Assembly (NCBI GenBank): GCA_963809895.1
Contig: CAWELD010000010.1
Coordinates: 768,001-832,000, forward strand
Length of the DNA stretch: 64,000 nt
Source: an uncultured Gemmatimonadales bacterium
GTDB lineage: Bacteria; Gemmatimonadota; Gemmatimonadetes; Longimicrobiales; Gaopeijiaceae
Direction of reading: 5' to 3'
Notes under the pieces: model-generated
What the model saw: only the letters and a program-made list of their open reading frames with translations
Databases searched by the model: none
What the model was told of the DNA's origin: nothing
In this document: positions 24,028 to 43,932 of the stretch, piece after piece
How the letters are laid out: each line of letters starts with the position of its first letter
Position numbering within the stretch: position 1 is the first letter of the stretch
Program-made: the position numbers and the translations under genes

Positions 24028-24043
24028 TGCACGTCGCTTGCCG
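24028..24043 (-). promoter_or_regulatory. Sigma-54 promoter for the wza-like gene
   Basis: Minus strand CGGCAAGCGACGTGCA (GG-N10-GC). Confidence 0.55.
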
Positions 24044-24179
24044 CGATCCCGATCGTGCTGGTCCGTCATGGTCATTTGTACTCCTCAGGCGGCGCGAAGA
24101 GCCGGTGGAGTGAGGGGCCCGGCTTCTCGGGTGTCCGGCTTCGGCATCCGCGGCCGGCAGGGGTCAAGGCTCCGTGAAT

Positions 24180-24218
24180 CGTTGCACGATCGCAACAATA
24201 TCTTGCGCTCACGCATCA
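24180..24218. promoter_or_regulatory. Candidate tandem enhancer (UAS) sites
   Basis: CGTTGC-N6-GCAACA at 24180 and TCTTGC-N6-GCATCA at 24201. Confidence 0.55.
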
Positions 24219-24292
24219 GAAATCGCACTCTCGTCTCCTCGAAGCTGCAACGATTTCGCGTCGCCTTTGCCACCGCACGACGGGGCCGGGGC

Positions 24293-24308
24293 AAGCACGG
24301 ATCTTGCT
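24293..24308 (+). promoter_or_regulatory. Near-canonical sigma-54 promoter for the REC-GGDEF gene
   Basis: AAGCACGGATCTTGCT; AG instead of GG at -25/-24, otherwise consensus. Confidence 0.4.
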
Positions 24309-24362
24309 TCTGAGGTCGACAACACCTTCCTCCATCTCCTGCGCGGCAGGCTTCGGGCGTCC

Positions 24363-25277
24363 ATGACCCAGGAACCATCGTTTACTCCCCTGGTGCTCCT
24401 CATCGAGGACCAGGAGTGGACCGCGCGGTCCCTCGAGAGCATCCTGAATCCCAACGGGTACGCCGTGTTCAAGGCGTACACCGGGCGCCAGGGATTGGAC
24501 ATCCTGCGCAAGATGATTCCGGACGTGATCCTGGTGAACCTGCGCCTGCCCGACATGACCGCGCTGGATGTGCTCAGGCGCCTGCGCACGATTCCGACGG
24601 TGTTCCCGTCCACGCCCCGCGTGGTGCTCACCACGGGCGCCATCTCCCACGCCGAGCGCATGCAGGTGCTCGAGGAGGGAGCCTGGGACGTGTTGAACCC
24701 CCCGTTCGATTCCCAGGACCTGACGGCCCGCATGGCGAACTGGGCCCGCGCCAAGCGCGACGCGGACCAGGCCCGGGACAACGGCCTCGTGGATCCCCTC
24801 ACCGGTCTGTACAACTTCAACGGACTCCTCCGTCGCATCGAGGAAATCGTGTCCGATGCCTCGCGCAACGAGCGCTACATCTCGTTCGTCATGGTGGGCC
24901 CGGCGTCGGCCGAAGAGCCCATCGTGCTCGAGACGCCCGACGAGAAGGGCGACGTGGCCAAACACCTCGGTCGCGCCCTGGCCTCCACGCTGCGCCTGTC
25001 CGACGCTGTCGGCCGCGTGGGCGAGACCGAGTTCGTGGTCATCGCCCCGGGAACCGACGAGCAGGGAGGGTCCATCCTGGCGCGACGGATCCTGGATGCC
25101 ATCCGGCACGAAGAGGATCTCGTGTCGCTCCGGGCCGGGGTCTACTCGGTGCGCAGGTCTCAGCTCGAGCCGATCTCCTCGCTCGACCTGCTCAGCCGAG
25201 CCACCGCGGCCCTGCGGCAGGCCCAGTCCCAGGGCGGGGACGAGGGGAACGGAGTCCGGTCGTTCCAGTTGAACTGA
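24363..25277 (+). CDS. Pseudo-receiver plus degenerate GGDEF protein
   Basis: REC with VILVNLRLPD (Asp to Asn) and no KPF lysine; DPLTGLYN; RLSD-x5-GETEF. Confidence 0.85.
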   Translation: MTQEPSFTPLVLLIEDQEWTARSLESILNPNGYAVFKAYTGRQGLDILRKMIPDVILVNLRLPDMTALDVLRRLRTIPTVFPSTPRVVLTTGAISHAERMQVLEEGAWDVLNPPFDSQDLTARMANWARAKRDADQARDNGLVDPLTGLYNFNGLLRRIEEIVSDASRNERYISFVMVGPASAEEPIVLETPDEKGDVAKHLGRALASTLRLSDAVGRVGETEFVVIAPGTDEQGGSILARRILDAIRHEEDLVSLRAGVYSVRRSQLEPISSLDLLSRATAALRQAQSQGGDEGNGVRSFQLN

Positions 25278-25359
25278 CGGGCGCCGTCGCCGGCGCTGCG
25301 GCCGCCACCTGACCGTTCCTCCCCTCGCCCCACGCACCTGGGGACCAGGCCTGTAAGTC

Positions 25360-27765
25360 CTACATGGTCACCACCCGAGTCTCTTCCGGCTCCTCTCCTG
25401 GACGATATCCCGGCAGGTAGTAGGAGTAGTACCGGTAGGCTCCGTATGCGGACCCCGGTTCGATGTCGTTGAGCACGGCGCCCAGCAGCCGCACGGGCAG
25501 CCGGTAGAACGCCTCCATCTTCGCGCGGGCCAACTCCTTGTGGGTGCTGCCCGAACGCAGGACGATGAGCACGTTACCAGTGAGGGCGCCGATGATGAAC
25601 GCGTCGCTTCCCGCCGTCATGGGCGGTGAGTCGATGAGGATGACTTCGTAGCGGCGCTTGGCGGCGGCCAGAAGCTCCTGCATGTCCCGTGAGCTCAGGA
25701 GCTCGGGGGACTCCGTGAAGCGGGATCCGCACGGGAGGAAGTGCAGATTGTCGTGCTTGGTCTTCTGGATGGCCGAGCCGTCGACCTTGCGCTGGAAGAG
25801 GTCCGTGAGCCCCGGCTTGCGGTTCGCCTCGAACAGGTCGTGCATGTCACCGCGCCGCGTGTCGGCGTCGATGATCAGCGTCTTGCGGCCGAGCTGGGCG
25901 AAGGTGATGCCCAGGTTGGCGGAGACGAAGGTCTTGCCCTCGCCGCTCTCGGGGCTGGTGACCGACAGGATCAGCGGGCGGGTGTTGCCGTAGGCGTACT
26001 GCACACGCATGCGGATCTCGCGGAAGGCCTCCAGCACGACCTCGGCGTTGCCACGCTTGGCGGCCTTGACCTTCGGCACCGCGCCCAGGATCTCGAGCCC
26101 CATGGCCCGACTGACCTCGGTGGGATAGCGGAGGCGCGGATCGAAGGTGTCCAGCCCGACGGCCGCCAGCGCACCCAGCGCCACGCAGCCCAGGAAGGCC
26201 AGCGCGAACCAACGCACCCGGTCGTCGCGCGACGGCACCGTGGGCACGCTCGGGAAGTCGATGACCTGGAGGTCGTTGGCCGTGTTGGCCTTTGCGAGCT
26301 GAGAGGTGTTCAGCCGGCTCAGGACCTCCTGGTAGAGCGCGTTGGCCGAGGCCACCTCCTGCTGGAGCGTGGCCTCGCGGATGGACCGCGGCGGAATGCG
26401 CCTCAGTTCATCGGCCCTGGAGTCGAGGGTGGCCCGGAGGTCGGCCTCCTGCGACTGGAGGCGCCCGATGAGCTGGCGGGTGAGCGACGGGATGTCGCGC
26501 TGCTCGATCTGCTCGATGCGCGAGTCCAGGTCCTGCACGGCCGGATACTCGGGGGTGTAGCGTTGCAGGAGTTCGCGGCGCTCGCTCCGCTTGCTCACCA
26601 GGTCGCTCAGCGCCTGCTTCATCTCCGTGGAGTTGGCGACGGCCGGGATGATCTCGAAGCGCTCGACCCGCACCCCCTCGCTGGGGATGGACTCCAGGAG
26701 CCCCTGGAGCTGCTCGCGGTCCCGGCGCAGATCGTCGAGCTCCTGACGCTTGCTGAAGAAGTCGTTGAAGACGGTGTTCGTGGTCTGAGCCAGTCCCGCG
26801 GCCACCGGCGCGGATTCCTCGGTGGGCAGCGTGACGGTGTTGACCTTGAAGCTTTCGAAGGTGTTGCGAGCCGAGTCGAGCTTCGCTTCCGCGCTGGTCA
26901 ACTGGTTTCGTGTGTTCACGATCTGGGTGTCGAGCTGCGCGCGCTTGAGGCTCAGCGCCACCTCCAGGAGCCGGTCCATGACCGACTGCAGGACGCCGGT
27001 GATCCGCTCCGGGTCCTCCCCTTCCAGCGACAGCGTCATGAAGTTGCCGTCGCGGGTGATGCTGGCATTGATGCGTTCCCGGAGCTGGCGCGCCGCGTCC
27101 TGGGGCGTGACCACACGGAACTCGATCACGCGCCCGGGCGTCAGCTCGGAGGCCGGGGGCTGCCAGCGGAATCCCAGCTCGACGCCCACGGAGTCGCCCA
27201 CGGCGCCCCGCTCGAGCTCCACACCGTCGTCGGTGAACAACGTCCAGCTACCGCCGCCTTCGGCGACCTCGAGCTTGTAGCTTCCGACCCGGTACACGAA
27301 CTGGTCGGGGCGCTCGCCCCTGTTCACCTCGAAGTCCGCCAGGGCGTCGGCGTTCTCCGGTGCGGTCTGCACGTAGAGCCGCTCCTTGATCACCACCGGG
27401 TTCAGGACCGCGTTGGTACGCATCAAGTCCTGGTAGGCGGCGCCGTTCAGCAGCTCACTCTGCTGAATCGGGCCCGGGATGCCGGTGTTGGAGGACTGCA
27501 CGATCCAGAACTGCCCCTCGGTCTGATAGCGGGGCACGCCCAGGCGGTACGCCAACATGCCCGCACCCGCACCCACCACCACGGACAGGAGGAGGAGCCA
27601 GCGGTAGCGCTGCAGCGAGGCCAGGATGCGCTTGAGGGCCTGGCTGTTGTCGCCCTCCTCTTCGGGCTCGGGTCCCATCCACGGTTCGGCGGCACCCGCG
27701 TACTGGGGCGGACCAACCTGGCCCGATTCCTCTACGGGAACCGGCGGGCGTGCATCTTCGCTCAT
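25360..27765 (-). CDS. wzc: Polysaccharide co-polymerase / tyrosine autokinase (Wzc family)
   Basis: Two TM segments flanking a long coiled periplasmic region; Walker A PESGEGKT, IIDADTRR, ILIDSPP; Tyr cluster AYGAYRYYSYY. Confidence 0.92.
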   Translation of the reverse strand: MSEDARPPVPVEESGQVGPPQYAGAAEPWMGPEPEEEGDNSQALKRILASLQRYRWLLLLSVVVGAGAGMLAYRLGVPRYQTEGQFWIVQSSNTGIPGPIQQSELLNGAAYQDLMRTNAVLNPVVIKERLYVQTAPENADALADFEVNRGERPDQFVYRVGSYKLEVAEGGGSWTLFTDDGVELERGAVGDSVGVELGFRWQPPASELTPGRVIEFRVVTPQDAARQLRERINASITRDGNFMTLSLEGEDPERITGVLQSVMDRLLEVALSLKRAQLDTQIVNTRNQLTSAEAKLDSARNTFESFKVNTVTLPTEESAPVAAGLAQTTNTVFNDFFSKRQELDDLRRDREQLQGLLESIPSEGVRVERFEIIPAVANSTEMKQALSDLVSKRSERRELLQRYTPEYPAVQDLDSRIEQIEQRDIPSLTRQLIGRLQSQEADLRATLDSRADELRRIPPRSIREATLQQEVASANALYQEVLSRLNTSQLAKANTANDLQVIDFPSVPTVPSRDDRVRWFALAFLGCVALGALAAVGLDTFDPRLRYPTEVSRAMGLEILGAVPKVKAAKRGNAEVVLEAFREIRMRVQYAYGNTRPLILSVTSPESGEGKTFVSANLGITFAQLGRKTLIIDADTRRGDMHDLFEANRKPGLTDLFQRKVDGSAIQKTKHDNLHFLPCGSRFTESPELLSSRDMQELLAAAKRRYEVILIDSPPMTAGSDAFIIGALTGNVLIVLRSGSTHKELARAKMEAFYRLPVRLLGAVLNDIEPGSAYGAYRYYSYYLPGYRPGEEPEETRVVTM

Positions 27766-27851
27766 CGGGATCCGGCGTGTTCTGGTCGAATTCTGGGGGC
27801 GAGTCGGGCGCCTTCACGGCGCGCCGAACGCGGAGTGGTCCCCATTTCCCT

Positions 27852-27867
27852 AGCAGGAAGGATACCA
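27852..27867 (-). promoter_or_regulatory. Sigma-54 promoter for wzc
   Basis: Minus strand TGGTATCCTTCCTGCT (GG-N10-GC). Confidence 0.55.
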
Positions 27868-27968
27868 GCGGGGCCGCAGCAGGGAAACATTCGGGGTCAA
27901 CGGGCGCTTGTCGGGCGCCTGCGCGGAACGGCAGGTGGCGAAGAGTGATGGGCCAACGCCTCGCCGAG

Positions 27969-28034
27969 TGTTGCAGGATGCCAGAACTGTGGCATGAATG
28001 CGGCGCCTGTCGCTTCACCTCCGCACCCTGTTGC
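27969..28034. promoter_or_regulatory. Candidate enhancer array
   Basis: TGTnGC half-sites at 27969, 27988, 28008 and 28029 (19-21 bp period). Confidence 0.5.
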
Positions 28035-28084
28035 CCCTCAGATGCTTGCGTTTCCACGCCACGGAAGAAAGCTTTAGCCTACAA

Positions 28085-28100
28085 CGGCCCGATCGTTGCA
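28085..28100 (+). promoter_or_regulatory. Sigma-54 promoter for the activator/kinase operon
   Basis: CGGCCCGATCGTTGCA (GG-N10-GC with TTGCA). Confidence 0.65.
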
Positions 28101-28171
28101 AGCATCCCGCAGGTGTCGCGCGGAATTCGCTGCGCCGGGCCGTTCTCATCCACACCGAGGTGATTCTTGGC

Positions 28172-29707
28172 ATGACGACACCGTCGAACCAGGTCGGTTG
28201 GGCGGGAGCATATTCCCGGGGGCGCGGTAATGCGTCCGGGAGCGAGGATCCCGTTGCGGTACCGGCCGAGGTCAAGAAGACCATCTCGGTGCTGGTGGTG
28301 GACGACGAGCACACCTTGAGAGAGAGCTGTGCGTCGTTGCTCCGGTCCGAGGGATTCCAGACCGTCGATGCGTCGCGGGGCGAGGACGCCATCGAGCTCC
28401 TCAAGCGTCGCAAGTTCGACATCGTTCTCTCCGACATGTTCATGCCCAACGTCGGTGGGATGAAGATTCTGGAGTTCGTCCGCAAGGAGTCCCCCAACAC
28501 CCTGGTCATCCTGATGACCGGCAATCCCTCGGTGGAATCGAGCATCGAGGGACTGCGCGCGGGCGCGTGGGACTACCTGCCCAAGCCCTTCTCGGCCAGC
28601 CATCTCCACATCGTGGTGGGACGGGCCGCTCACACGGTCATGGTGAGCCGCGAGAGCAAGGAGTCGGGGGTCGACGTCGCCGGTGAGCTCGGACAGGGTG
28701 AGACCCGCATCCTCGGAATCTCGCCTCAGATCCACCAGGTCGTGTCGCTGGCGCGCAAGGTCGCCGCCACCGACGCCTCCGTGTTCATCACGGGTGAGAG
28801 TGGAACGGGAAAGGAGCTCATCGCCCACTTCATCCACGAGAACAGCAACCGCAAGACCAGGCAGCTGGTGCCGGTCAACTGCGCCGCCATGCCCGAGGCA
28901 CTGCTCGAGTCGGAGATGTTCGGGCACGTCCAGGGAGCGTTTACGGGTGCCGTCCGTGAAAAGAAGGGGCTCCTCGAAGTCGCTCACGGCGGCACCCTCT
29001 TCCTGGACGAGCTCACCGAGATGCCGGTGACCATCCAGGCCAAGCTGCTGCGGGTCATCCAGGACGGAGTCGTGCGCCGGGTGGGCAGCACGCGCACCGA
29101 CGCGGTCGTGAACGTGCGCTTCATCGCCGCCACGAACATCGATCCCGTCGAGGCGGTCCGGTCCGGCAATCTGCGCAAGGATCTCCACTACCGCCTGCGC
29201 GTGGTTCCGATCCAGATTCCTCCGCTGCGTGACCGGGTCGAAGACATCGCCATGCTGGCCGAGCACTTCCTGAAGGAGTTCTGGGTCATGCACCGGGGGG
29301 CGACCGAGGCTGCGCCGAGCCTGTCGGACTCGGCCCTGGACGCGTTGAGCTCCTGGCCATGGCGGGGGAACGTCCGGGAGCTCCGGAACGTGATCGAGCA
29401 CCTGGTGGTCCTGGCGGGACCCGGCGAGGAGGTGGGAGCGGACGCCGTTCCCTTCATCGCCGACGAGTTGGAGGAAGGCGGCGGCTTCGGGAGAATGTCG
29501 TTCCGGGATTCGTTTCGTGACGCCGACTACCACACGGCCCGGGACCGGGTTCTGGCGGAATTCGAGAAGGAGTACCTCGAATACGTCGTGCGCGAGGCGG
29601 GGGGCAACATCTCCGACGCGGCCCGCATGGCAGGGGTGGATCGGACCACGCTCTACCGCCTGATGGAGAAGCACGGGACGTCGAAGCGCGAGTTGCTGAG
29701 CAACTGA
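28172..29707 (+). CDS. Sigma-54-dependent response regulator (NtrC family; REC-AAA+-Fis HTH)
   Basis: VLSDMFMP receiver; GESGTGKE, ESEMFGH, GAFTGA, LFLDE, WRGNVREL; GVDRTTLYRL HTH; GAGGTGA RBS. Confidence 0.95.
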   Translation: MTTPSNQVGWAGAYSRGRGNASGSEDPVAVPAEVKKTISVLVVDDEHTLRESCASLLRSEGFQTVDASRGEDAIELLKRRKFDIVLSDMFMPNVGGMKILEFVRKESPNTLVILMTGNPSVESSIEGLRAGAWDYLPKPFSASHLHIVVGRAAHTVMVSRESKESGVDVAGELGQGETRILGISPQIHQVVSLARKVAATDASVFITGESGTGKELIAHFIHENSNRKTRQLVPVNCAAMPEALLESEMFGHVQGAFTGAVREKKGLLEVAHGGTLFLDELTEMPVTIQAKLLRVIQDGVVRRVGSTRTDAVVNVRFIAATNIDPVEAVRSGNLRKDLHYRLRVVPIQIPPLRDRVEDIAMLAEHFLKEFWVMHRGATEAAPSLSDSALDALSSWPWRGNVRELRNVIEHLVVLAGPGEEVGADAVPFIADELEEGGGFGRMSFRDSFRDADYHTARDRVLAEFEKEYLEYVVREAGGNISDAARMAGVDRTTLYRLMEKHGTSKRELLSN

Positions 29708-29797
29708 CCGCGTCCACGAGAGCGCCCATGTCCCCGCGTCGCGCGCCCGAAGCGGAGCCCGGCAGGGGTCTGCTGACTGATCTGGCCCGGGCCGTCG

Positions 29798-30811
29798 ATG
29801 GAGGACTGGCCCGCAGGCGCGCACGCGAATCCCGAGGCGCTGCGCGCGGAGTTGGACCGGATCGTCGCGTGGGTCGCTGCCCGGAAAGGGAGCACGACCG
29901 GCGAGGGTCCGCCGCCGCCCGAGCCCGATGACCGGTTCCTGCAGCGCCGCCTGCTGGAGTCGCTCCGCCTGCGGTGTCTGAGGCGTTGGGCCGAACCTGG
30001 CGAGCATCGAGACACCGATGCCGTGGCCTGCCTGGACCTGCTGGTGCTCCTGGACCAGCTCGGCCGGGCATCGCTCCCGGAAGACGCCCGGGACCTGGCG
30101 AGTCGACTCGCCGATCCGGACGGTTTCGAGCTTCTGGTCGAGCTCGCCCACGACCTTCGATCGCCGCTGACGTCCATCTCCTTCCTCGCCGAGACCCTGC
30201 GGGGGGGCTTCAGCGGCGATCTCAACGAGCAGCAACGGCATCAGCTCGGACTCATCTATTCGGCGGCCCTGGCGATGCAGTCGGTGGTCACGGACGTCAT
30301 GGACCTGGCACGTCACGGTGCCGACGTCCTGGACGAGGACGTGACGGCGTTCGCCCTGTCCGACGTCTTCGACGGCGTGCGCCGTCTCGTGGAGCCCATC
30401 GCGCAGGTGAAGGGACTGGAGTTGCGAGCCTCGGTACCGGACCACGAGCGGGTGCAGGGGCGTCCCACCGCCCTGAGCCGGGTGATCCTGAACCTGGTCA
30501 CCAACGGCCTCAAGTTCACCGAATCCGGCTACGTGGAGATGGCCGCCACCTGGGTCGGCCACGACGAGGTCGAGATCTCGGTGCGGGACACCGGACGCGG
30601 CATCGACCCCGAGAGCCAGGACGCCATGTTCCAGCCGTTCCGCAAGGCGCGGGATCGGCCGGGGTCCTTCTTTTCGGGGAGTGGGCTGGGACTGTCGGTG
30701 GTGCGGCGCCTCGTGGAGGCCCTGGGCTCGGAGCTGGAGTTCGAGACGCGGCCGGATTGGGGCACGCGGTTCTACTTCCGGATGGCGCTCCGGAGCGTGA
30801 GCCATTACTGA
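29798..30811 (+). CDS. Cytoplasmic sensor histidine kinase
   Basis: LAHDLRSPL, NLVTNGLKFT, DTGRGI, FQPF, GSGLGL; no TM segment visible. Confidence 0.9.
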   Translation: MEDWPAGAHANPEALRAELDRIVAWVAARKGSTTGEGPPPPEPDDRFLQRRLLESLRLRCLRRWAEPGEHRDTDAVACLDLLVLLDQLGRASLPEDARDLASRLADPDGFELLVELAHDLRSPLTSISFLAETLRGGFSGDLNEQQRHQLGLIYSAALAMQSVVTDVMDLARHGADVLDEDVTAFALSDVFDGVRRLVEPIAQVKGLELRASVPDHERVQGRPTALSRVILNLVTNGLKFTESGYVEMAATWVGHDEVEISVRDTGRGIDPESQDAMFQPFRKARDRPGSFFSGSGLGLSVVRRLVEALGSELEFETRPDWGTRFYFRMALRSVSHY

Positions 30812-30862
30812 GGCTCGCATGGGCTTTGCATCGTGACCAGACCGTGTCTGCGGACCGCTTGA

Positions 30863-31027
30863 CGTGCCGCTGGCGCCACAAGTCCTGTAGCGTACGTCCA
30901 ACAAACGTGGGTCCCAGGCGTCAGTTCTCCTTCGTGGCCGGGTTGCTGTGAATCACCTAAGTCCTTGTGATCCATTGCACTTAGGAATATCTTCGAAAAA
31001 TTGCGCCGGATGTGAACGACCCTTGCT
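30863..31027 (+). promoter_or_regulatory. Enhancer pair, IHF-like site and near-canonical sigma-54 promoter of the priming transferase/exosortase operon
   Basis: CGTGCC-N6-GCCACA (30863), TGTAGC-N6-CCAACA (30886), CCTAAGT...ACTTAGG (30956-30985), GTGAACGACCCTTGCT (31012-31027). Confidence 0.6.
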
Positions 31028-31081
31028 GAAAGACGAGGGAGAAGGCATCGTTTACGTCCGATCTCGCCAGCGAGGTTGTTC

Positions 31082-31867
31082 GTGCAGTCAACCGAACCTG
31101 CATCCATCGTCGTGAACCGCACCCGGACGGAGCCGCGCCCGTGGCTTCCGCCCCAGCGGTTCGGTGGCGTAACGTGGGAAGGTCCTGCGGAACCCGTGAA
31201 GAGACCCCTCCGGACCACCCGCGAGATACGCAACGCCTGGTGCCGTGCCCTGAACATCGGCGCGGCCTCGGCTCTGCTGATCCTTTTTTCGCCCGTCATG
31301 TTGCTCGTCGCGCTGGCCGTGAAGCTCACGAGCCGGGGGCCGATCATCTACACGCAGGAGCGCGTGGGCCTCGATCGCAGGCGTGGGCGCGGGGGACGGA
31401 TCCCCCGCAACCGCCGCCGCGACGACATGGGTGGGAAGATCTTCCGTGTCTACAAGTTCCGCACGATGCGGCACGCCGAGGCCGATACCGGCCAGACGTG
31501 GGCCTCGAAGGACGACCCGCGCATCACGCCGGTTGGGCGCCTGCTGCGCGCCTATCGCCTGGACGAGCTGCCCCAGCTCTTCAACGTGCTGAAGGGCGAC
31601 ATGAACGTTGTGGGGCCGCGCCCCGAGCAGCCGGAGATCTTCCAGCAGCTGCGGGCCGAGGTGGAAGGCTACGCCGACCGCCAGCGCGTGCTGCCGGGCA
31701 TCACCGGGTGGGCGCAGGTCAACCATCACTACGATCAGTGCGTCGAGGACGTGAAGAAGAAGCTGGCGCTCGATCTGGACTACATCTCGCGGCGCTCGCC
31801 CCTGGAGGATCTGAAGATCATGACGCGGACTCCTGTGGTCATGGTCCTCAAACAAGGGTCACAGTAG
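31082..31867 (+). CDS. Priming sugar transferase (polyprenyl glycosylphosphotransferase, WcaJ C-terminal type); start 31076 or 31082
   Basis: Single TM; YKFRTM, DDPRITPVG, LDELPQLFNVLKGDM, VGPRPE, PGITGWAQV. Confidence 0.93.
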   Translation: MQSTEPASIVVNRTRTEPRPWLPPQRFGGVTWEGPAEPVKRPLRTTREIRNAWCRALNIGAASALLILFSPVMLLVALAVKLTSRGPIIYTQERVGLDRRRGRGGRIPRNRRRDDMGGKIFRVYKFRTMRHAEADTGQTWASKDDPRITPVGRLLRAYRLDELPQLFNVLKGDMNVVGPRPEQPEIFQQLRAEVEGYADRQRVLPGITGWAQVNHHYDQCVEDVKKKLALDLDYISRRSPLEDLKIMTRTPVVMVLKQGSQ

Positions 31868-31880
31868 GGAAGGGGCTGCC

Positions 31881-32813
31881 GTGCTTGCTTCTCTGCGCGA
31901 TGCGCTGCGAGACCCCCGGAGGTCGGCTCCCCTCGTTGTCGGCGGGCTGGCCTTCGTCGTTCTGTTCTGGGCGCCCATCACGACCCTCGTGCGCGACTGG
32001 CTCCACGATCCCGAGGCGTCACACGGACTCCTTCTGGCACCCATCGCCGTCTGGCTGGCCTGGAAGCGGGGGCTGAGGCCCGACGCCAAGCCGTGGCCTC
32101 TGGCGGGACTGGCGCTGCTGGTGCTGGCGATCCTGCTCCGATTCGCGTCGGGGCTGGCCGCCGAGCTCTTCACCATGCGCATGTCGCTGCTGGGAGCCGT
32201 GGGGGCCGTCATCGTCTTTCTGTGGGGCTTTCGCCAGCTCGGCCGGTGGTGGCTGCCCGCGGCCCTGTTGATCCTCTCGGTGCCGATTCCGGACGTCATC
32301 CTGTCCACCGTGGCGTTCCCGCTTCAACTCCAGGCATCGAAGCTGGGCGCGGCCATGTTGGAGTGGCGTGACGTGCCGGTGCTGCTGTCGGGCAACGTGA
32401 TTCACCTGCCCGGACGGTCCCTGTTCGTCACCGAGGCGTGCAGCGGTCTGCGCTCACTGACGGCTCTGATCGCGCTCGGCCTTCTCATGGGAGGGCTCTG
32501 GCTGCGGCATCCCGTGTCCCGGGTGGCGCTCCTGGCCGTGGCCATTCCGGTGGCCATGGCGCTCAACGGCGTACGCATCTTCCTGACCGGCTTCCTGGTC
32601 TACTTCGTGGATCCGGCGCTGGGGGAGGGTTTCATGCACTACACCGAGGGCTGGGCGCTCTTCCTGGTGGCCTTCCTCATCCTGGGGGGCATGACCTGGG
32701 CGCTGGTCGCCCTGGAGAGCTGGCTGCGGCAACGGAAGCGGCCCGCCCCTCCGGCAGGCGTCGAGACCCCGGATACCTCCACGGAGCCAGCCATGGCGGG
32801 AGGCGCCCTGTGA
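31881..32813 (+). CDS. Exosortase (EpsH family)
   Basis: Multi-TM protein; SHGLL, FPLQL, VTEACSGLRSL (Cys), NGVRIF (Arg), FMHYTEG (His). Confidence 0.93.
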   Translation: MLASLRDALRDPRRSAPLVVGGLAFVVLFWAPITTLVRDWLHDPEASHGLLLAPIAVWLAWKRGLRPDAKPWPLAGLALLVLAILLRFASGLAAELFTMRMSLLGAVGAVIVFLWGFRQLGRWWLPAALLILSVPIPDVILSTVAFPLQLQASKLGAAMLEWRDVPVLLSGNVIHLPGRSLFVTEACSGLRSLTALIALGLLMGGLWLRHPVSRVALLAVAIPVAMALNGVRIFLTGFLVYFVDPALGEGFMHYTEGWALFLVAFLILGGMTWALVALESWLRQRKRPAPPAGVETPDTSTEPAMAGGAL

Positions 32814-33451
32814 TCGCCGCCGTTCGGTGGGCTCCGGCCGCTCTTCTCTCGGTCGGTGCGTTCCTCGTACACGGCCTCGGACCCCAGCAGGAACTGGAGC
32901 TCCGCGAGCCGCTTGATGTAGCCGTGCCACAGCGGTTGGCCGGCATGAGCGGTGAAAATCTCGAGGTCAGCGATGCCGAGGCTCAGGTTGCCGGATTCAC
33001 GGATTACCTGTTCCGCGTCTACGGAGCTCCCGAGAGCGAGGCGGACTGGGCCACGCTCTACGTGGGCTACTACGCTTCGCAGACGCAGGGCCGCACCATC
33101 CACTCGCCCAAGAACTGTTTGCCCGGTGCGGGCTGGGAGCCGCTCACCTCGACGGTTGCGGCGATCCCGGTGGCGGGGCTTGGCACGGTGGAGGTGAACC
33201 GCTACATCCTTCAGCGCAAGGACGAGCGCGCCCTGGTGCTCTACTGGTACCAGGGAAGGGGGCGGGTCGCACACGACGAGTACAAGGTCAAGTGGGACCT
33301 GCTCAGGGATGCAGCGTTGCATCAACGCAGCGATGAGTCGCTTGTACGCATCGTTGTGCCGGTATCGACGAGCGTCGAAGCTGCGTTCGCCCGGGCCCGA
33401 GCCCTGGCTTCTGGAGTTATCCCGGAGCTGGGAAAGGCGCTTCCTCTCTAG
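32810..33451 (+). CDS. epsI: Exosortase-associated EpsI-family protein
   Basis: GTGA overlap with exosortase; LYVGYYASQ, IHSPKNCLPGAGWE, LVLYWYQ, RSDESLVRI. Confidence 0.9.
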   Translation: MIAAVRWAPAALLSVGAFLVHGLGPQQELELREPLDVAVPQRLAGMSGENLEVSDAEAQVAGFTDYLFRVYGAPESEADWATLYVGYYASQTQGRTIHSPKNCLPGAGWEPLTSTVAAIPVAGLGTVEVNRYILQRKDERALVLYWYQGRGRVAHDEYKVKWDLLRDAALHQRSDESLVRIVVPVSTSVEAAFARARALASGVIPELGKALPL

Positions 33452-33462
33452 GAGAACGGACT

Positions 33463-33972
33463 GTGGCCAAGGTCGTCGTCGAGGGACGGACATCGAAAAC
33501 GGATCGGATCTTGCACGATCATGATCTCACCAGACCCGCAGGCCGGTTTGTGGCCTGGGCAGGCGTGGTTTACGCCGTTGCCATCGTGGTGGATGTCGCG
33601 ATCCTGTGGTTTGGGCAGAATCAGGATTCGGTCCAGTTCGAGTTCGTGGCACTGAGCCGGACGGCCGAAGCGTTTCCGCGGTTCATTCTCGCGACGGCGC
33701 TGATCTACGCGGGCCTGGGGATCCTGAAGTCGGCATCGCTGGCGGTCTACCGCCTGCTGTCGGCATGGGTCCTGGCTCTCGGGGTGGCGGCATTGGCCGT
33801 CGTCGGCCTGACCGTCCTGAACTATTTGACAATGGCAAGCACCGTCACGCCGGAAGCGAAGCAGCTGTTCCGGTCGGCGGTGGTGAAGACTGGGGGCCTC
33901 GGGGCCCTCTACGTGTTGTTTCTCATTCCCCTGGGCATCCTCGGCTTCCGGACGCGGAGGCGATTGGGGTGA
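33463..33972 (+). CDS. Four-helix membrane protein, possibly HpsJ-like
   Basis: AGGAG RBS; four hydrophobic segments; lies between epsI and the PEP-CTERM gene. Confidence 0.75.
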   Translation: MAKVVVEGRTSKTDRILHDHDLTRPAGRFVAWAGVVYAVAIVVDVAILWFGQNQDSVQFEFVALSRTAEAFPRFILATALIYAGLGILKSASLAVYRLLSAWVLALGVAALAVVGLTVLNYLTMASTVTPEAKQLFRSAVVKTGGLGALYVLFLIPLGILGFRTRRRLG

Positions 33973-34071
33973 GCGTATCGGCGGTTCGCGCTCCCAGGGA
34001 ATCGTGGCGGTAGGTGCGGGACATGCATCGCTCCGCCGTTCCTCTTCATTCTCGCAAAGGAGGGTAGCACA

Positions 34072-34680
34072 GTGCTACGAAGAACCTTGTTTACCGGCCT
34101 CGCGCTGACCGGATTGGCCATGGGCCTCTCCGTGCAGCCCGCGCAGGCCTCGGAGGAGCTGACATCGAGTATGTTGGCTACCTGCGTTGGCGCAGGTGGC
34201 TCATGCGACATGGTCGACTTCGTCCTGAACGTGGCCGGCCCGACCGATCTCTACGTGGAGAAGGTCAGCATCTTCGGGCTGGACCCGATCTGGAAGTTTG
34301 GCAACGTGGACAGCGTCTGGTCGAACGGATCTCTCGCTTCGTGGGTTCAGAGCTCGAACTACGATGCATTGACCCTGACGATCTCGAACGGTGCGCCGTT
34401 CGATCTGACTCCCATCCGGATTCGGGTGGGCATGACCCAGTATGGCAATGCGAGCCAATTCGCGGCCATGGCCTACACGGCCAACGGGTATGAGAAGGCG
34501 AACCCGACCCCGACGGAGATCCAGAATGGCTCCGCGGGCTTCTTCAGCACCTCGGGCACGGTTACGCCCGAGCCGGTGACCACCCTGCTACTGGGGACCG
34601 GTCTCGCCGGACTTGCGGGCGTCGCCCGTAGAAAGAAGAAGCAGGGTATCGTCGAGGACGAAGAGGATGCTGTTGCCTGA
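34072..34680 (+). CDS. PEP-CTERM sorting domain-containing protein
   Basis: AAGGAGG RBS; signal peptide ending AQA; C-terminal VTPEP, TM helix, RRKKK. Confidence 0.93.
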   Translation: MLRRTLFTGLALTGLAMGLSVQPAQASEELTSSMLATCVGAGGSCDMVDFVLNVAGPTDLYVEKVSIFGLDPIWKFGNVDSVWSNGSLASWVQSSNYDALTLTISNGAPFDLTPIRIRVGMTQYGNASQFAAMAYTANGYEKANPTPTEIQNGSAGFFSTSGTVTPEPVTTLLLGTGLAGLAGVARRKKKQGIVEDEEDAVA

Positions 34681-34732
34681 CGAGTAGGCTGCAGGAACGG
34701 CGGGCGCGCAGCACCCCAGCTTCGTCCCGCGC

Positions 34733-34772
34733 CAAAGGGGGGTCCACTCACCGCCGGAGTGGGCCCCCTTTC
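34733..34772 (+). terminator. Intrinsic terminator after the PEP-CTERM gene
   Basis: AAAGGGGGGTCCACTC...GAGTGGGCCCCCTTTC stem-loop. Confidence 0.65.
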
Positions 34773-34861
34773 GGTATGTGATCGAGTATCTTTCCTGAAC
34801 GGGCGCGGCGCCCCATTGTGCCGCGCAGGAACTACCGCCCCCCTTCGTGCTCCGGAGCCGT

Positions 34862-36040
34862 ATGTCGTCCTCGACCACACCGGGCAATCTGCTCTGCGTG
34901 GCCAACTTCCCCGCTGGGACCGGCTTCGCGTGGGACTTCATCGAGAGCCTCTACGCGGGATTGGCGGAGAGGCTGGAACCGCGGGGCGTTCGCACGTGGG
35001 TGGCCTATCCCAGGGTCGATCAGGCGCCCCACACCCTGGAAGGGAGCGCGGCGGAGCCTGTTGAGCACGCCTGGTCGCTCACGACGGCGGTAGATCGCTC
35101 CGCCGCCCGCGACCTGGTGCGGAGGCTCGGGGTGAGCGCCCTCTACCTGTCCGATCGTGCCGTGTGGAGCCCAGGATACTCCGTGCTCCGGCGAGAGGGC
35201 GTGCGTACCGTCGTGGTGCACGACCACACCTCGGGACTGCGCACCCGCCCCCAGGGCGTGAAGCGTCTGATCAAGGATACGCGCCATCGGCTCGTGCCCG
35301 GCGGCATGGCGGACCGCGTCCTGGCGGTCAGCGACTTCGTGGCGCTGCGCAAGGTGGAGGTGGATCTGGTCCCCGCCCGGCGGGTCACGCGGATCTGGAA
35401 CTCGGTCGATGTCCCGGAGCGTGTGCCCGACGATGGGGAACGCGGGCGGATACGCGGTCGCTTCGGCTTGTCTACGACGCGTCCGCTGGTCATCTGTGTG
35501 GGTCGCGCCGCCCGTGAGAAAGGGATCCACCACCTTTTTCGGGCCTTCGACGCCCTGCTGGACGAGGCCGAGTTCGCGGCCGAGGAAGCCCGACCGGTGC
35601 TGTTGTATCTCGGCGATGGCCCTGCCATGCGAGAGATCCGCGCCCTGCGCCATGAGCTCGCCCACGTCGAAGACATCCGCCTCGGGGGGTACGTCGAGGG
35701 TGCGGCCGAGATCGTAGGGGCTGCGGATCTGGCGGTGGTGCCCTCTACCTGGGCCGAGGCATTCGGCCTGGCAGCGCTGGAGCCTCTGAGCCGCGGCGTG
35801 CCGGTGGTGGCCTCGAACGTCGGTGGACTGCCGGAGGTCGTGCGCCACGGCGTCGACGGTCTCCTGGTACCGCCCGGCGACGAAGTCGCCCTGGCACGAG
35901 CCTTGTACAAGCTGCTCCTGGACCCGGAGCTTCGGCAGGAGATGGGCGCTCGTGGACGTGAGCGTGCCCAGTCCGAGTTTTCTCGCCGGGTCCAGCTCGA
36001 TCATCTGGAGGAGGTCTTCGTCAGCGAGATGTTCGGATGA
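34862..36040 (+). CDS. Glycosyltransferase family 4
   Basis: VGRAAREKG, EAFGLAALE (EX7E), VASNVGGLPEVV. Confidence 0.9.
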   Translation: MSSSTTPGNLLCVANFPAGTGFAWDFIESLYAGLAERLEPRGVRTWVAYPRVDQAPHTLEGSAAEPVEHAWSLTTAVDRSAARDLVRRLGVSALYLSDRAVWSPGYSVLRREGVRTVVVHDHTSGLRTRPQGVKRLIKDTRHRLVPGGMADRVLAVSDFVALRKVEVDLVPARRVTRIWNSVDVPERVPDDGERGRIRGRFGLSTTRPLVICVGRAAREKGIHHLFRAFDALLDEAEFAAEEARPVLLYLGDGPAMREIRALRHELAHVEDIRLGGYVEGAAEIVGAADLAVVPSTWAEAFGLAALEPLSRGVPVVASNVGGLPEVVRHGVDGLLVPPGDEVALARALYKLLLDPELRQEMGARGRERAQSEFSRRVQLDHLEEVFVSEMFG

Positions 36041-39606: not shown

Positions 39607-40784
39607 GTGACGGATGCCTCGCGACGCGTGGGCTCCCAGATGGGGTTGCGATCGCCCCTCAGGGCCAGAATCGAGGCTCGGATCGCCGCGACGTTGCCCA
39701 TGAAGGCGAAGCCGGGCACTGACAGGAACCACGGGAGGTTGCGGTCACCGGCGAATGCCCAAACAGCCGCGCCCAGCGCGCTCCCGCCGACCAGGGCCGC
39801 GAGGAGGATCCCGGCCCAGGAGTGCTGAGGTGCGAGACTCGCCATCCCCACCATAGCCACCAGCCCTGCCCAGGGCAGCGCCCAGCGACACACCTTGTGA
39901 CTGAACAGCATCCAGGCGAAGAGGCCATGGCGGAAAGGGTTCAGCAGAGCGCGCTTGTGCAGGAGCGTCTCCATGCCCCGCGCCATGGTGCGCACCTTGC
40001 GCGGGAACTCCCGGCGGAGTGACGCGGTGCGGGGCACCACGCAGGTGGCGTCGGCGACCGACACCGCCCGGAAACCCCTCTCGCGCGTGTTGAGGGCAGC
40101 CGCGAAATCCCGGCTCAGCTCCGGAGGCAAGGGAATCCTGTGCAGCTCGCGACGGATAGCGTAGAAACAGCCCGAGGCTCCGACGATTCCCGACACCTTC
40201 GTCTCGAGGTCGCGCACCCACATCTCGTAGCCCACGTACCCGGCCTCGCCCTGATTCGCCTCCGCCCCTTCCCGACCCACGCTGACGTCTCGGCCCGAAG
40301 CCAATCCCACGGAGGGATCCCGAAAGGGGGCGATCAAGCGCTCGAGGGATCGAGGGTGAATGCGAATGGATGCATCGGTGTTGACGACGATGTCACCGGT
40401 CAGATGCTCGGCCGCCAGGTTCTCGGCGGCAGTCTTGCCGGCACGCTCCGGCTGACGGAGTAGCGTGATTCCCCGGTCCGCGTACCGCCGCACGATCTCG
40501 TCGGTGGCATCCGTCGACGCGTCCGACACGATGAGGATCTGCTTGCGATCCGCGGGATATTCCAGTGCCAGCAGGCTCTCCACCGTGTCCGCGATCTGGT
40601 GCTCTTCGTTGTACGCCGGGACGGTGATGCTGATGGCGGGCCAGTCTCGGTCGTCCGCCTCGTACCTGGGCGCGCGCTGTGTGGACCGCATGGCCGCGAG
40701 GGCCTTCAGCAGGAGGGGATACCCCACGTAGGTATAGACGCCCAGCGCCAGGGGGGCGACCACGGCTATCCATGCCAGGATCAC
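39603..40784 (-). CDS. Glycosyltransferase family 2, membrane-associated
   Basis: YTYVGYPLLL, VPAYNEE, VSDASTD, GASGCFYAIRR, SHKVCRW. Confidence 0.9.
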   Translation of the reverse strand: MILAWIAVVAPLALGVYTYVGYPLLLKALAAMRSTQRAPRYEADDRDWPAISITVPAYNEEHQIADTVESLLALEYPADRKQILIVSDASTDATDEIVRRYADRGITLLRQPERAGKTAAENLAAEHLTGDIVVNTDASIRIHPRSLERLIAPFRDPSVGLASGRDVSVGREGAEANQGEAGYVGYEMWVRDLETKVSGIVGASGCFYAIRRELHRIPLPPELSRDFAAALNTRERGFRAVSVADATCVVPRTASLRREFPRKVRTMARGMETLLHKRALLNPFRHGLFAWMLFSHKVCRWALPWAGLVAMVGMASLAPQHSWAGILLAALVGGSALGAAVWAFAGDRNLPWFLSVPGFAFMGNVAAIRASILALRGDRNPIWEPTRREASVT

Positions 40785-41929
40785 GGGCGCCCCCCACGGT
40801 GTCCGGCGGGCCCGGGAACCCGCGTAGGGGCCACGGATCGATACAGCTCGAGGTGCTGCCCGACCCACGCCTCGGGCTGATAGTCACGCTCGATGCGGCG
40901 GCGGGCGGCTGATACAGCCTCCGCCGGCGAGGCGAGAGTCGTGGCCAACGCTTCGGCAAGCGCGGCCGGGTCCTCCGGTGGCACGACGTTGGGTCCGTCT
41001 CCGAGAAGGTCCGGCACGCCCCCGACCGCAGACGCGACCACCGGCACTCCCGCCTCCGTGGCTTCGAGCACCACGATGGGTGTGCCCTCGGTCCGCGATG
41101 GAAGCGCGAGCACGTCGAACGCGGTCATGAGCCTCGCGGCGTCCTCGACACGACCGAGCCACCGGATGCGCGCGTCGACACCCAGGTCGTGGGCCAATGC
41201 CTCCAGATCCTGCCGGGACCGGCCCTCTCCCACCATGCAGAGGTGGGCGTCGGCGAGAGCCGGTGTCGCCAGGGCCCGGACGAGGACATCGCCCCCCTTC
41301 TCCGGGCTGAGGCGCCCGACCCAACCGATGATCGGACCGGGCGCTTCGGTCAGACCGAGCAAGGCCCGCGCATCCGCGCGTGTCGAGGTTGGCGCCGTGG
41401 GACGCCAGGCATTGCGGATGACGTGCACCCGCTCCGCGGGCACGCCGGCTCGCACCAATCCCTCCACCTGCAGCCGGGACACGGCGATCACCGCATCGAA
41501 CGCCCGAAAGGCCCGACGCTGGAGCCACTCGTAGAAGCGGTTGCGAAGCCCGTTGCCCGTGAAACCGTGCACGGTGCTCACGGTGGCGATCCCCCGATTC
41601 CGCGCTACGGGTGCATCGATTACGTCGGGGCGGTAGCCGTGGGTATGGAGGATGTTCGCCCGCAACTCATCGAGGAGGCTGGCGACGCCGTCACGTTCCT
41701 GGCGGTAGCCTCGGCCCGCGATGCGAAGCACCCGCACGTCGGTGCCATCGGTGCGCAGGGCCTTCACGAACGGATGGTCCTGCGTAGCGGCATCGAGCAC
41801 GGCTGCGACGTGGACGCGGGCGCCCGCATCCGATTGCCCCTCGGCCAGGGCGCGCACGACGGTTTCGAGTCCACCCGTGGCCGCCGGCGCCAGCAGGTGG
41901 ACGACGGTGAGCTCGGACGGATCGGTCAT
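40781..41929 (-). CDS. Glycosyltransferase family 4
   Basis: GGLETVV, LHTHGYR, VGRLSPEKG, EGTPIVVLEA. Confidence 0.9.
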   Translation of the reverse strand: MTDPSELTVVHLLAPAATGGLETVVRALAEGQSDAGARVHVAAVLDAATQDHPFVKALRTDGTDVRVLRIAGRGYRQERDGVASLLDELRANILHTHGYRPDVIDAPVARNRGIATVSTVHGFTGNGLRNRFYEWLQRRAFRAFDAVIAVSRLQVEGLVRAGVPAERVHVIRNAWRPTAPTSTRADARALLGLTEAPGPIIGWVGRLSPEKGGDVLVRALATPALADAHLCMVGEGRSRQDLEALAHDLGVDARIRWLGRVEDAARLMTAFDVLALPSRTEGTPIVVLEATEAGVPVVASAVGGVPDLLGDGPNVVPPEDPAALAEALATTLASPAEAVSAARRRIERDYQPEAWVGQHLELYRSVAPTRVPGPAGHRGGRP

Positions 41930-43656
41930 CCAGCCAGCGCGGGACTCTCGACCTGGCGCAGCTTGCCGTCCCGCATGAGGTACACGATGTCGGCGACTTC
42001 TCGGAGGGCCGGCTGGTGCGAAATGGACAGCACGGTGACGTCGCCACTCAACTCCTTGAGTGTCTTGCAGATCGCCTGCTCCGTTGCAGGATCCAGGGCG
42101 GTGGTGACCTCGTCCAGTATCAAGAGGGAGGGCCGAGTCACCAGGGCGCGGGCGATGGCGATCCGCTGTCGTTGACCCCCGGAGAGCATGCCGCCGCGCT
42201 CCCCGATGTGGTGGTCCATCCCCCCTTCCTTTTCCTTCACGAAATCCCAGGCGCCGGCCATCCGAAGAGCCCTTTCGGCGTCCTCGCGGCTGAGATTCTC
42301 GTCACCGAGCGTGACGTTGCGCAGAATGGTGTCGTTGAACAGGAGCATCTCCTGCGGTACGTAGCCGATCGTGTGTCGCCATCCCCTGAGCTCGAGCTCG
42401 TCCATGGGGGTGCCATCGATGAGAATGCGACCTCCGTCCGGCACATAGAGGCCGGCTACGAGATCCGCCAGCGTGGTCTTGCCCGACCCCGACTCCCCTG
42501 CGATGGCGACGAACGAACCGGCGGGAATCTCGAGATCGACGCCGTCCAGCACCGGATGCTCGTCGTAGGCGAAGCGCACGCCCTGGAAGACGATTCCCTG
42601 TCGCAGTGCTCCGGGATCCCGCCCGCCGGTGTCGACCTCCTTCTCGCGTGCGGCTTCGTCCAACTCGTCACGGAGAGACCAGAAGGCGCTCTCTCCGTGC
42701 CGCACCGTCTGATAGCGGAGTTGGAGCGTGTTCACGTTGGTCATGAGGCGATAGAAGACGAAAGCCAGCACCAGAACCGCAGAGAGGGGCTGCTCCTGCA
42801 CGCCGATGAGGAGGTAGAGGCCCCCGGCCAGCATGGCGGTGAGGGCGGGTTCCTGGAACGAGCGCATCGTCTCGGAGGCCCGCACCATCTGCCGCTGCGC
42901 CTGATTGAGGCCCTCCGTCTCACGTTCGAGGAGGGGCCATACGAGGTCCTGGCGAGCCATGGCCTTGAGCGGCTTGATCCCCTGGAGCACGTCCACGAGG
43001 CGTGACGCCAGGCTCTTGGTCAGGTTCGTTTGTGTCGTGCCGGCCGCGTGGGTGTCCCGGAAGAAGCGCCGGAAAAGGAACGTCAGCACGATACCGGCGG
43101 CGACTGCGGCAAGCGTGATCTGCCAGGAGATCATGGCGGAGATGGCCAGGTACGCCGACACCTGGAGCAAGGCCGCGAGCACCTGACACGCCTCGCGGTA
43201 GGCGGCGGAGGCGCGAATGGCCTCGGAGGTGATCGCGTTGGCGAACTGGCCCGTCGATCTCGATCCGAAATACCTCCACCGCACGTCGAGAAGGCTGCGC
43301 ATGAGCTCCAGCCGGAGGTCACGGGTCACCTGGGCGATCGTGTATCCGACCTGGCGCAGAGCGATCCAGAGAGTCCCCGCCTTGAGGCTCATGGCGACGA
43401 CGATGGCCAGCAGAAGCACACCCAGCGTCGGTTCCAGTCCGATCGCGCGAATGCCGTCGACCACCAGACGACCCACCCTCGAGTCGGCGGTGCCCGTGCC
43501 CTCCGCGACCTGCAGTACGGGAATGAGGGCGAGCACGCCGATTCCCTCTGCCAGCCCGGCCACCACCATCAGCCCGATCATCAGGATCGAGCGGGAGGGA
43601 TATGCCGCCAGGAAATAGCGGAAGAAGTCTCGTGTCCGGTGTTCGGTCTCGGGCAC
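41926..43656 (-). CDS. ABC transporter fused permease/ATPase (MsbA/PglK-like glycan flippase)
   Basis: N-terminal TM domain; GESGSGKT, LSGGQRQRIAIARAL, ILDEVTTALD. Confidence 0.9.
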   Translation of the reverse strand: MPETEHRTRDFFRYFLAAYPSRSILMIGLMVVAGLAEGIGVLALIPVLQVAEGTGTADSRVGRLVVDGIRAIGLEPTLGVLLLAIVVAMSLKAGTLWIALRQVGYTIAQVTRDLRLELMRSLLDVRWRYFGSRSTGQFANAITSEAIRASAAYREACQVLAALLQVSAYLAISAMISWQITLAAVAAGIVLTFLFRRFFRDTHAAGTTQTNLTKSLASRLVDVLQGIKPLKAMARQDLVWPLLERETEGLNQAQRQMVRASETMRSFQEPALTAMLAGGLYLLIGVQEQPLSAVLVLAFVFYRLMTNVNTLQLRYQTVRHGESAFWSLRDELDEAAREKEVDTGGRDPGALRQGIVFQGVRFAYDEHPVLDGVDLEIPAGSFVAIAGESGSGKTTLADLVAGLYVPDGGRILIDGTPMDELELRGWRHTIGYVPQEMLLFNDTILRNVTLGDENLSREDAERALRMAGAWDFVKEKEGGMDHHIGERGGMLSGGQRQRIAIARALVTRPSLLILDEVTTALDPATEQAICKTLKELSGDVTVLSISHQPALREVADIVYLMRDGKLRQVESPALAG

Positions 43657-43700
43657 GTGGAATCCGGGTTCGAGTCACGGGGTCATCCGCACTCCTCGGG

Positions 43701-43715
43701 GCAAATGTCGTTCCA
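43701..43715 (-). promoter_or_regulatory. Sigma-54 promoter for the ABC flippase/glycosyltransferase operon
   Basis: Minus strand TGGAACGACATTTGC. Confidence 0.7.
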
Positions 43716-43823
43716 CAACCCAGTGCGGACAACAATTGCGACCCGTGGCGGCGTAGCGCCCCCTCGGTCCGCGACGTTAGCGTAGGGGCGCGGACGGCCT
43801 GACGGCTGGGGCGATTGACGGAG

Positions 43824-43841
43824 TGTGGCGCTTGCGCCACA
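43824..43841. promoter_or_regulatory. Perfect palindromic enhancer candidate
   Basis: TGTGGCGC-TT-GCGCCACA between two divergent sigma-54 promoters. Confidence 0.65.
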
Positions 43842-43916
43842 GTGTCCAACGGGCCGTGCGTCCAGAGGACCTCCACGGAGGGTGTGAATTCCGCGGAATC
43901 GGCGGTGGGCACACTA

Positions 43917-43932
43917 CGGTACGAAGCGTGCA
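43917..43932 (+). promoter_or_regulatory. Sigma-54 promoter for the ligase/glycosyltransferase operon
   Basis: CGGTACGAAGCGTGCA (GG-N10-GC). Confidence 0.6.

Follow-up and report, generated by a model that had tools for sequence, protein, structure and literature searches.

The same 18-bp palindrome recurs in three divergent intergenic spacers of one bacterial polysaccharide locus, raising the question of which protein reads it and which promoters it serves. The locus lies in a 64,000-nucleotide stretch of contig CAWELD010000010.1 (positions 768,001 to 832,000, hereafter the window) from an uncultured Gemmatimonadales bacterium, and coordinates are those of the window unless a contig is named. 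By Pfam and NCBIfam assignment, wza (-) diverges from a gene for a receiver (REC)/degenerate-GGDEF protein (+), and wzc (-) diverges from a gene for a REC-AAA+-helix-turn-helix (HTH) activator (+), which is followed by a histidine kinase; downstream of the kinase lie genes for a priming glycosyltransferase, an exosortase, EpsI, a PEP-CTERM protein, glycosyl- and sulfotransferases, and an ABC exporter (-) divergent from a Wzy_C ligase/polymerase (+). A first-pass annotation had proposed that each spacer holds two divergent sigma-54 promoters sharing a central enhancer, the palindrome, under the control of the activator. We consider it probable, at roughly 80%, that the palindrome is the binding site of this adjacent NtrC-type activator, which would switch on polysaccharide, exosortase and PEP-CTERM operons through sigma-54 promoters. 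We read directly from the sequences the motif, its occurrence in tandem, how well it is conserved and the intact domains of the activator, and from these we infer every protein-DNA and transcription step described below.

The palindrome is conserved across orthologous loci

We sampled 111 loci whose activator shares at least 50% identity with that of the window, leaving aside two duplicates and paralogue loci that were more distant (L-numbers denote loci and G-numbers genomes; the window's own 5.3 Mb genome is G000 and its closest relative G005). De novo palindromic expectation-maximization, with the window excluded, returned TGTnGC-N6-GCnACA as the top motif in the wza/REC, wzc/activator and glycosyltransferase spacers, with log-likelihoods of 74-123 versus 25-43 for shuffles. 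Using a matrix for this candidate upstream activating sequence (UAS) built from 159 orthologous spacers with the window left out, we found sites of at least 9 bits in 174 of 183 orthologous spacers versus 5-11% of shuffles, a mostly in-sample figure. The training classes contributed 41/42, 17/17, 67/72 and 26/28 (the last being the glycosyltransferase spacers), and the REC-to-activator spacers, a class not used in training, contributed 23/24. Out of sample, the three best sites in the 64 kb window were 24180 (18.1 bits), 30886 (17.2 bits) and 43824 (16.7 bits). Genome-wide, six intergenic sites reached at least 16 bits where shuffles predict 1.8, four of the top five intergenic sites lie at this locus, and both of the divergent spacers with a site of at least 16 bits (2 of 407) are found here.

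Tandem partners lie 20-23 bp away (24201, 28008 and 30863/30906), bearing out the spacing of about 20 bp first proposed, and secondary sites in relatives peak at 19-24 and 41-46 bp. Across 20 further loci, a UAS of at least 13 bits precedes 11 of 20 scorable priming-glycosyltransferase matches, with a -24/-12 element at 107-130 bp, although three of these 11 are one repeated sequence; two matches had too little upstream DNA. The motif thus rises above shuffled background and recurs in orthologous loci, as the first-pass annotation had anticipated, and its letters were found where they had been placed, with the sole correction that the element assigned to 43701 occupies 43700-43715. These data support the palindrome as a putative conserved UAS of the exopolysaccharide/exosortase locus, often tandem and roughly 80-200 bp upstream of a -24/-12 site.

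The adjacent activator is the most likely reader

The activator (28172..29707, +) has the architecture of an enhancer-binding protein, with a receiver domain (PF00072) bearing Asp88, an AAA+ domain (PF00158) with GAFTGA, and a Fis-type HTH (PF02954) with recognition helix DRTTLYR. This helix and Asp88 are invariant in 110 of 110 orthologues, the pattern expected of a single protein reading a single conserved motif, and GAFTGA and Walker A are also conserved. Activator matches (E 1e-100) occur in 45 of 61 genomes, and nearly all of 80 named records are labelled Gemmatimonadota. A PDB search with the activator's HTH returned only Fis. The host encodes rpoN with an intact RpoN box (ARRTVAKYR) and three IHF/HU genes. 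The histidine kinase (29798..30811, +; 337 aa, HisKA and HATPase by Pfam) is adjacent in most orthologous loci and is the probable partner of the activator, and the order wza/REC/wzc/activator/kinase/glycosyltransferase is widely conserved. Linkage and the joint conservation of motif and helix favor the activator as the likely reader of the palindrome, in agreement with the annotation's proposal. RNA-seq in G. phototrophica has been reported to show expression both of a gene annotated as a sigma-54 regulator and of the tyrosine autokinase gene oriented divergently from it; the text of that paper contains no start-site data (PMC11406998).

Under the mechanism we propose, the kinase would phosphorylate Asp88, activator dimers would load on tandem UAS sites 20-23 bp apart, and bound activator would loop to sigma-54 polymerase 85-130 bp away, aided by IHF at some promoters. 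The predicted targets are two minus-strand units, wzc (27852) and the ABC exporter (43700), three plus-strand units, the REC gene (24293), the glycosyltransferase/exosortase operon (31012) and the ligase operon (43917), and a second PEP-CTERM operon a short way past the window; overall, the regulon would comprise six window promoters and a few outside.

Sigma-54-like elements with and without GG

We scored the candidate promoters as sigma-54-like elements, obtaining 15.0 bits for 43917 (the window's best), 13.7 for 24293, 13.2 for 31012, 12.9 for 28085, 11.6 for 43700, 8.4 for 27852 and 7.3 for 24028. Among the 407 divergent spacers of the genome, used as a control, a one-sided score of at least 7.3 occurs in 18% and of at least 11.6 in 4.2%, so by score alone 24028 and 27852 are not above chance; conservation rescues 27852 and not 24028. 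GG at -25/-24 and GC at -13/-12 with fixed spacing are present at 27852, 28085, 43700 and 43917, and by letters at 24028, while 24293 has AG and 31012 has TG in place of GG. Only one of the 407 divergent spacers, 43700/43917, passes all thresholds, the 24180 spacer failing only at the 7.3 edge. High sigma-54-like scores also occur within coding sequence at 33498-33515 and 35890-35907, with no UAS.

The non-GG element ahead of the glycosyltransferase/exosortase operon (31012..31027, +; GTG at -26..-24) lies 119 bp from a UAS array at 30863..30923, and the interval is AT-rich, IHF-like DNA. The 15/18 identity between 30863 and 43824 that had drawn attention to this array is correct, yet 30863 is a weak secondary site (5.7 bits), as is 30906 (4.4 bits), and the strong site is 30886. 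The 24 glycosyltransferase promoters scored read GCG (9), GTG (7), GAG (1), AAG (1) or GG-type (6), such that 17 of 24 are G-N-G. The GG and non-GG forms alternate at identical spacings in relatives, which is the best argument for the non-GG forms as true sigma-54 sites. An IHF consensus between UAS and promoter was only weakly enriched (15 of 27 glycosyltransferase spacers at two mismatches versus 28% of shuffles). In 17 Gemmatimonadales loci (e.g., L058 and L062), the glycosyltransferase-side element is GG-N8-TTGAW in 17/17, with GA replacing GC at -12, constituting another non-canonical sigma-54-like class.

The second non-GG element precedes the REC/degenerate-GGDEF gene (24293..24308, +) and lies 85 bp from the secondary UAS at 24201..24218 (7.5 bits). 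The closest relative retains the element, and the spacing seen most often in relatives is 84-87 bp. Its AG in place of GG, previously listed as an exception among the pairs, is a genuine departure and a conserved class feature rather than a defect: the element is present in 50 of 59 orthologous spacers, as CG in 37, TG in 11, AG in 2 and GG in none.

Called upstream regions of the own genome contain 13 GG sense matches (0.3 expected) and two non-GG matches, both in this regulon, and six of the seven non-GG matches in the whole genome are non-coding (27% for permuted patterns). Of the matches in five other genomes, 30 of 38 without GG and 38 of 40 with GG are non-coding, and none has a UAS upstream (two of 40 non-GG matches were omitted because they belonged to training, and 40 of 46 GG matches were fetched). 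Compared to a TTGCW baseline in the fetched loci of these genomes (103 of 191 non-coding), the non-GG excess has p about 0.002, a figure that is suggestive only because the coding model came from another genome; raw non-GG counts equal those of a reversed control (40 versus 41). We rejected a restriction of non-GG promoters to this regulon, given the absence of a UAS upstream of all 38 non-GG elements in the five genomes and four more non-coding non-GG matches without a UAS in the own genome. Such elements without this enhancer hint that the -25 base may be relaxed in this lineage. In Myxococcus, promoters that deviate from GG by one base are already known (PMC7910581). Whether Gemmatimonadota sigma-54 polymerase, despite its standard RpoN box, routinely uses promoters lacking the first G of GG is something we entertain tentatively, at a little short of even odds. 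If it does, much of the phylum's regulon would escape standard sigma-54 scans and the textbook sigma-54 recognition rule would be relaxed in this lineage.

The non-GG elements of the REC gene, and of wza in Gemmatimonadaceae, could instead be operators of a second dimeric regulator recognizing a GCAC-N5-GTGC dyad, with the genes transcribed by sigma-70. The complete absence of GG before the REC gene (0/50) fits this alternative, as do the conservation of a normally free spacer as GA-N-TY, a wza-arm form that reads on both strands (19 versus 18 of 41) and TTGACC downstream in four genus-mates. However, the REC form is oriented (15/17 versus 0/17, and 23/40 versus 5/40 on the opposite strand), the window's copy at 24293 closes with the canonical TTGCT, REC arms show no enrichment of sigma-70-like scores (3/40), and GG and non-GG forms alternate at identical spacings in the glycosyltransferase class. 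We regard a dyad operator as unlikely and treat these elements as candidate sigma-54 promoters.

Shared enhancers are plausible at two of three spacers

The ABC/ligase spacer fits the three-pair proposal best. A single near-perfect UAS palindrome (43824..43841, 16/18) lies 119 and 86 bp from two canonical sigma-54-type candidates, one for the ABC exporter (43700..43715, -) and one for the Wzy_C/O-glycosylation-ligase operon (43917..43932, +), with no secondary UAS of at least 3 bits. Ligase orthologues were found in only three of 250 class genomes (E 1e-40) and no orthologous ABC/ligase divergent spacer was found; a UAS also heads ligase orthologues in L127, L129 and L135 and, with L005 added, ligase or ABC orthologues in four loci.

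In the wzc/activator spacer, the canonical GG/GC candidate for wzc (27852..27867, -) retains its core in the closest relative, with changes at free positions only; G occupies -25 in 49 of 51 scored arms of the 67 in its class, and YGG-N9-TGCW occurs in 40/67 wzc arms versus 5% of shuffles. A tandem UAS array at 27969..28046 (half-site 27969, 27988, 28008 at 8.5 bits, and half-site 28029) keeps its left halves largely intact in that relative. On the activator side, a canonical sigma-54-type candidate (28085..28100, +; 15/16 identical in the relative) follows a sigma-70-like -35/-10 pair (28046..28074, +; TTGCGT-17-AAGCTT, both hexamers identical in the relative) that overlaps the last UAS half-site. 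Several genus-mates have a comparable sigma-70 layout (e.g., L019, L022, L023, L024, L027 and L033), and sigma-70-like pairs occur in 19/66 activator arms and 18/23 tandem REC-activator arms, counts above the shuffled 95th percentile. The sigma-54 pattern itself is present on the activator side in only 13 of 66 relatives. The pair proposed for this spacer is thus kept on both sides in the closest relative, but canonical sites flank both genes in only 12/66 relatives and the activator side also looks sigma-70-like. Transcription of the activator gene may switch from a basal sigma-70 promoter to positive autoregulation through the induced sigma-54 promoter at 28085. At glnAp1/glnAp2, the enhancer sites of NtrC lie across a basal sigma-70 promoter and turn on a sigma-54 promoter farther downstream, which belongs to the operon encoding NtrC itself; the likeness here is drawn from layout only.

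The wza/REC spacer contains the primary UAS (24180..24197), with an aligned 18.3-bit site in the closest relative. The wza-side -24/-12 candidate (24028..24043, -) had been proposed as a promoter, a claim we could not sustain: its score is at chance level, and in the closest relative wza begins about 40 bp from the UAS, which leaves no room for the element, and no counterpart of it is present. If wza starts instead from an alternative ATG at 24075, which has a GAGGAG ribosome site, the element would fall inside the reading frame. Canonical-looking wza-arm sites at 173-187 bp in some Gemmatimonadales appear to lie within signal-peptide coding sequence and were discounted. A TTGA(C/T) hexamer facing wza (24164-24169, -), about 10 bp from the UAS and kept in the closest relative, has no good -10 after it and may be a -35 or an IHF half-site. 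By eye, the wza/REC spacers of L005, L007, L010 and L011 contain an apparent small open reading frame, rich in cysteine, between the UAS and wza.

It is improbable that each of the three spacers is a genuine bidirectional sigma-54 pair driven by one shared central enhancer. All six elements have -24/-12 geometry and lie 86-147 bp from a UAS, such spacers are rare among the 407 divergent spacers of the genome, and ZraR provides a precedent for divergent sigma-54 promoters under one activator (PMC4987338). Against this stand the failure of the wza side and the scarcity of both-sided sites among relatives. In addition, 17 of 41 wza/REC spacers have their UAS sites in distinct clusters separated by more than 50 bp, suggesting that many promoters have an enhancer of their own, and separate clusters also occur in 19 of 67 wzc/activator spacers. 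The three-pair claim goes one pair too far. Judging from site layout, two directions could plausibly share an enhancer at 43824 and at 27988, but this does not appear to be a general rule; a single enhancer would likely act both ways at 43824 and, within this lineage, also at 27988, and probably not at 24180.

Evidence against the activator-palindrome pairing

Several results weigh against assigning the palindrome to the adjacent activator. The sampled loci are kin rather than independent samples, and the UAS at 27988 scores only 9.9 bits (window rank 9). Helical phasing of the UAS-promoter distance was not significant at 10-10.75 bp, and a whole-genome pattern count in 61 genomes was dominated by background and did not separate activator-bearing from activator-free genomes. 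The own genome encodes 19 full sigma-54 activator domains, so the assignment of the reader rests on linkage and co-conservation. Finally, strong UAS sites occur in two genomes without a detected activator orthologue (20.4 bits in G053 and 14.9 bits in G018), both fragmented assemblies, at positions in the sampled loci other than the region before the priming glycosyltransferase. A regulator encoded elsewhere, with the adjacent activator merely one of its targets, could be any of the 18 other activators and would accommodate these two genomes, but it is very unlikely, as the motif and the recognition helix are conserved together throughout the phylum and four scorable genomes without a detected orthologue have only 1.2-4.3 bits before the priming glycosyltransferase.

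Comparison with known systems

The switch logic itself is familiar and appears to work like PrsR with the PEP-CTERM box and SypG with syp. The Proteobacterial PEP-CTERM box, with PrsK/PrsR/PrsT, was described by Haft et al. in 2006 (PMC1569441), and a counterpart has been described in Desulfovibrio (PMC3333781). Like PrsR as described there, the activator is an NtrC-like sigma-54 activator associated with an upstream motif (sometimes repeated), a -24/-12 site and exosortase, PEP-CTERM and exopolysaccharide genes. PrsR motif 1, by its text description, is 17 nt ending in TTTACA, lies about 63 nt from the promoter, mostly precedes single PEP-CTERM genes and was reported only in Proteobacteria (PMC1569441), whereas the motif here is 18 bp, ends in GC[A/C/T]ACA and heads biosynthesis operons. 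We rejected the identification of the activator as PrsR on the basis of the motif and of the TIGR02915 cut-off (358.7 versus 502.6 bits). PrsK was absent from the 25 best of 59 NCBIfam matches of the adjacent kinase, the genome itself not having been searched for PrsK/PrsT. Exosortase and substrates occur together here, as with the PEP-CTERM box: a pattern search found two PEP-CTERM-like C-termini, both downstream of a UAS.

Vibrio fischeri SypG is likewise a receiver-domain sigma-54 activator, controlling the 18-gene polysaccharide syp locus through a dedicated UAS; that UAS (TTCTCANNNTGMDWN) and the phylum differ, and the available text of the report mentions no exosortase link (PMC10162802). 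The E. coli GlrR (QseF) site, TGTC-N10-GACA, is likewise an 18-bp palindrome of the form TGT-N12-ACA, occurs in several copies and is accompanied by IHF sites and by sigma-70 promoters that overlap sigma-54 ones, but its targets are small RNAs (PMC3045617), whereas here positions 5-6 are fixed as GC and position 4 is T, G or A; the activator scores 341 against the GlrR model (cut-off 763). ZraR at zraP/zraSR also combines one activator with two divergent sigma-54 promoters including that of its own operon, in a single pair belonging to an envelope-stress system with another motif and other targets (PMC4987338).

Full-text literature searches, with most subscription papers outside their coverage, returned no description of this motif or regulon in Gemmatimonadota, and a term search of the main text of a cross-phylum sigma-54 survey found no mention of the phylum (PMC12316311). 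Haft et al. noted that further motifs were still to be found outside Proteobacteria (PMC1569441), a gap that the present motif would fill for PEP-CTERM systems. For a widespread phylum of which few members have been cultured, the locus offers a concrete regulator and motif, open to testing, behind the production of surface polysaccharide and PEP-CTERM proteins.

Other genes of the locus and further UAS sites

The wza-like polysaccharide export protein (23206..23982, -; Pfam Poly_export) has a signal peptide starting at 23982. The gene at 25360..27765 (-), initially called a polymerase, encodes a Wzc-type chain-length protein/tyrosine autokinase (TIGR01007 above cut-off). The priming glycosyltransferase, exosortase (TIGR02602 above cut-off), EpsI, a small membrane protein and the PEP-CTERM protein (34072-34680) span 31076..34680 (+). 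The candidate flippase is an MsbA/HepA-like ABC exporter (41926..43656, -), and the Wzy_C family polymerase/ligase (43980..45452, +) matches PF04932, with TIGR03097 below cut-off.

The receiver/degenerate-GGDEF protein (24363..25277, +; Pfam) lacks a GGDEF motif throughout an alignment of 75, is kept phylum-wide with this regulon and has Asn at the phospho-site in the window and closest relative, where 67 of 75 have Asp. The one metatranscriptome found had a small word share; one of its contigs crosses 24118 and the PEP-CTERM gene is covered, but contigs give no starts or levels and were not used as evidence. In a near relative's RNA-library contig (33939-34748), word depth over the PEP-CTERM gene is far above that of adjacent contigs, although contigs cannot rank expression.

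Elsewhere on the same contig (C10), a 15.5-bit UAS (L122:6068; G000:C10:836068) occupies a spacer flanked by a low-molecular-weight tyrosine phosphatase operon and a VanZ-like gene, and neither side of it has a sigma-54-like site. The genome's best UAS (20.0 bits; L122:11366-12787, G000:C10:841366-842787), 9 kb past the window, has a canonical sigma-54 site 131 bp on and heads a small membrane protein and a PEP-CTERM gene, a pairing like that at 33463-34680. A 17.3-bit UAS with a canonical sigma-54 site (L123:6029; G000:C10:391029) precedes a kinase/activator pair upstream of Flp pilin and prepilin peptidase genes, a possible cascade to Tad pili. A 15.4-bit UAS with a non-GG element 118 bp on (L124:4560; G000:C10:945560) precedes aminotransferase, C-methyltransferase and dTDP-sugar epimerase genes and likely marks another target. 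In G058, loci L145-L147 carry multiple copies of the priming glycosyltransferase/wza/wzc block, with a UAS on each.

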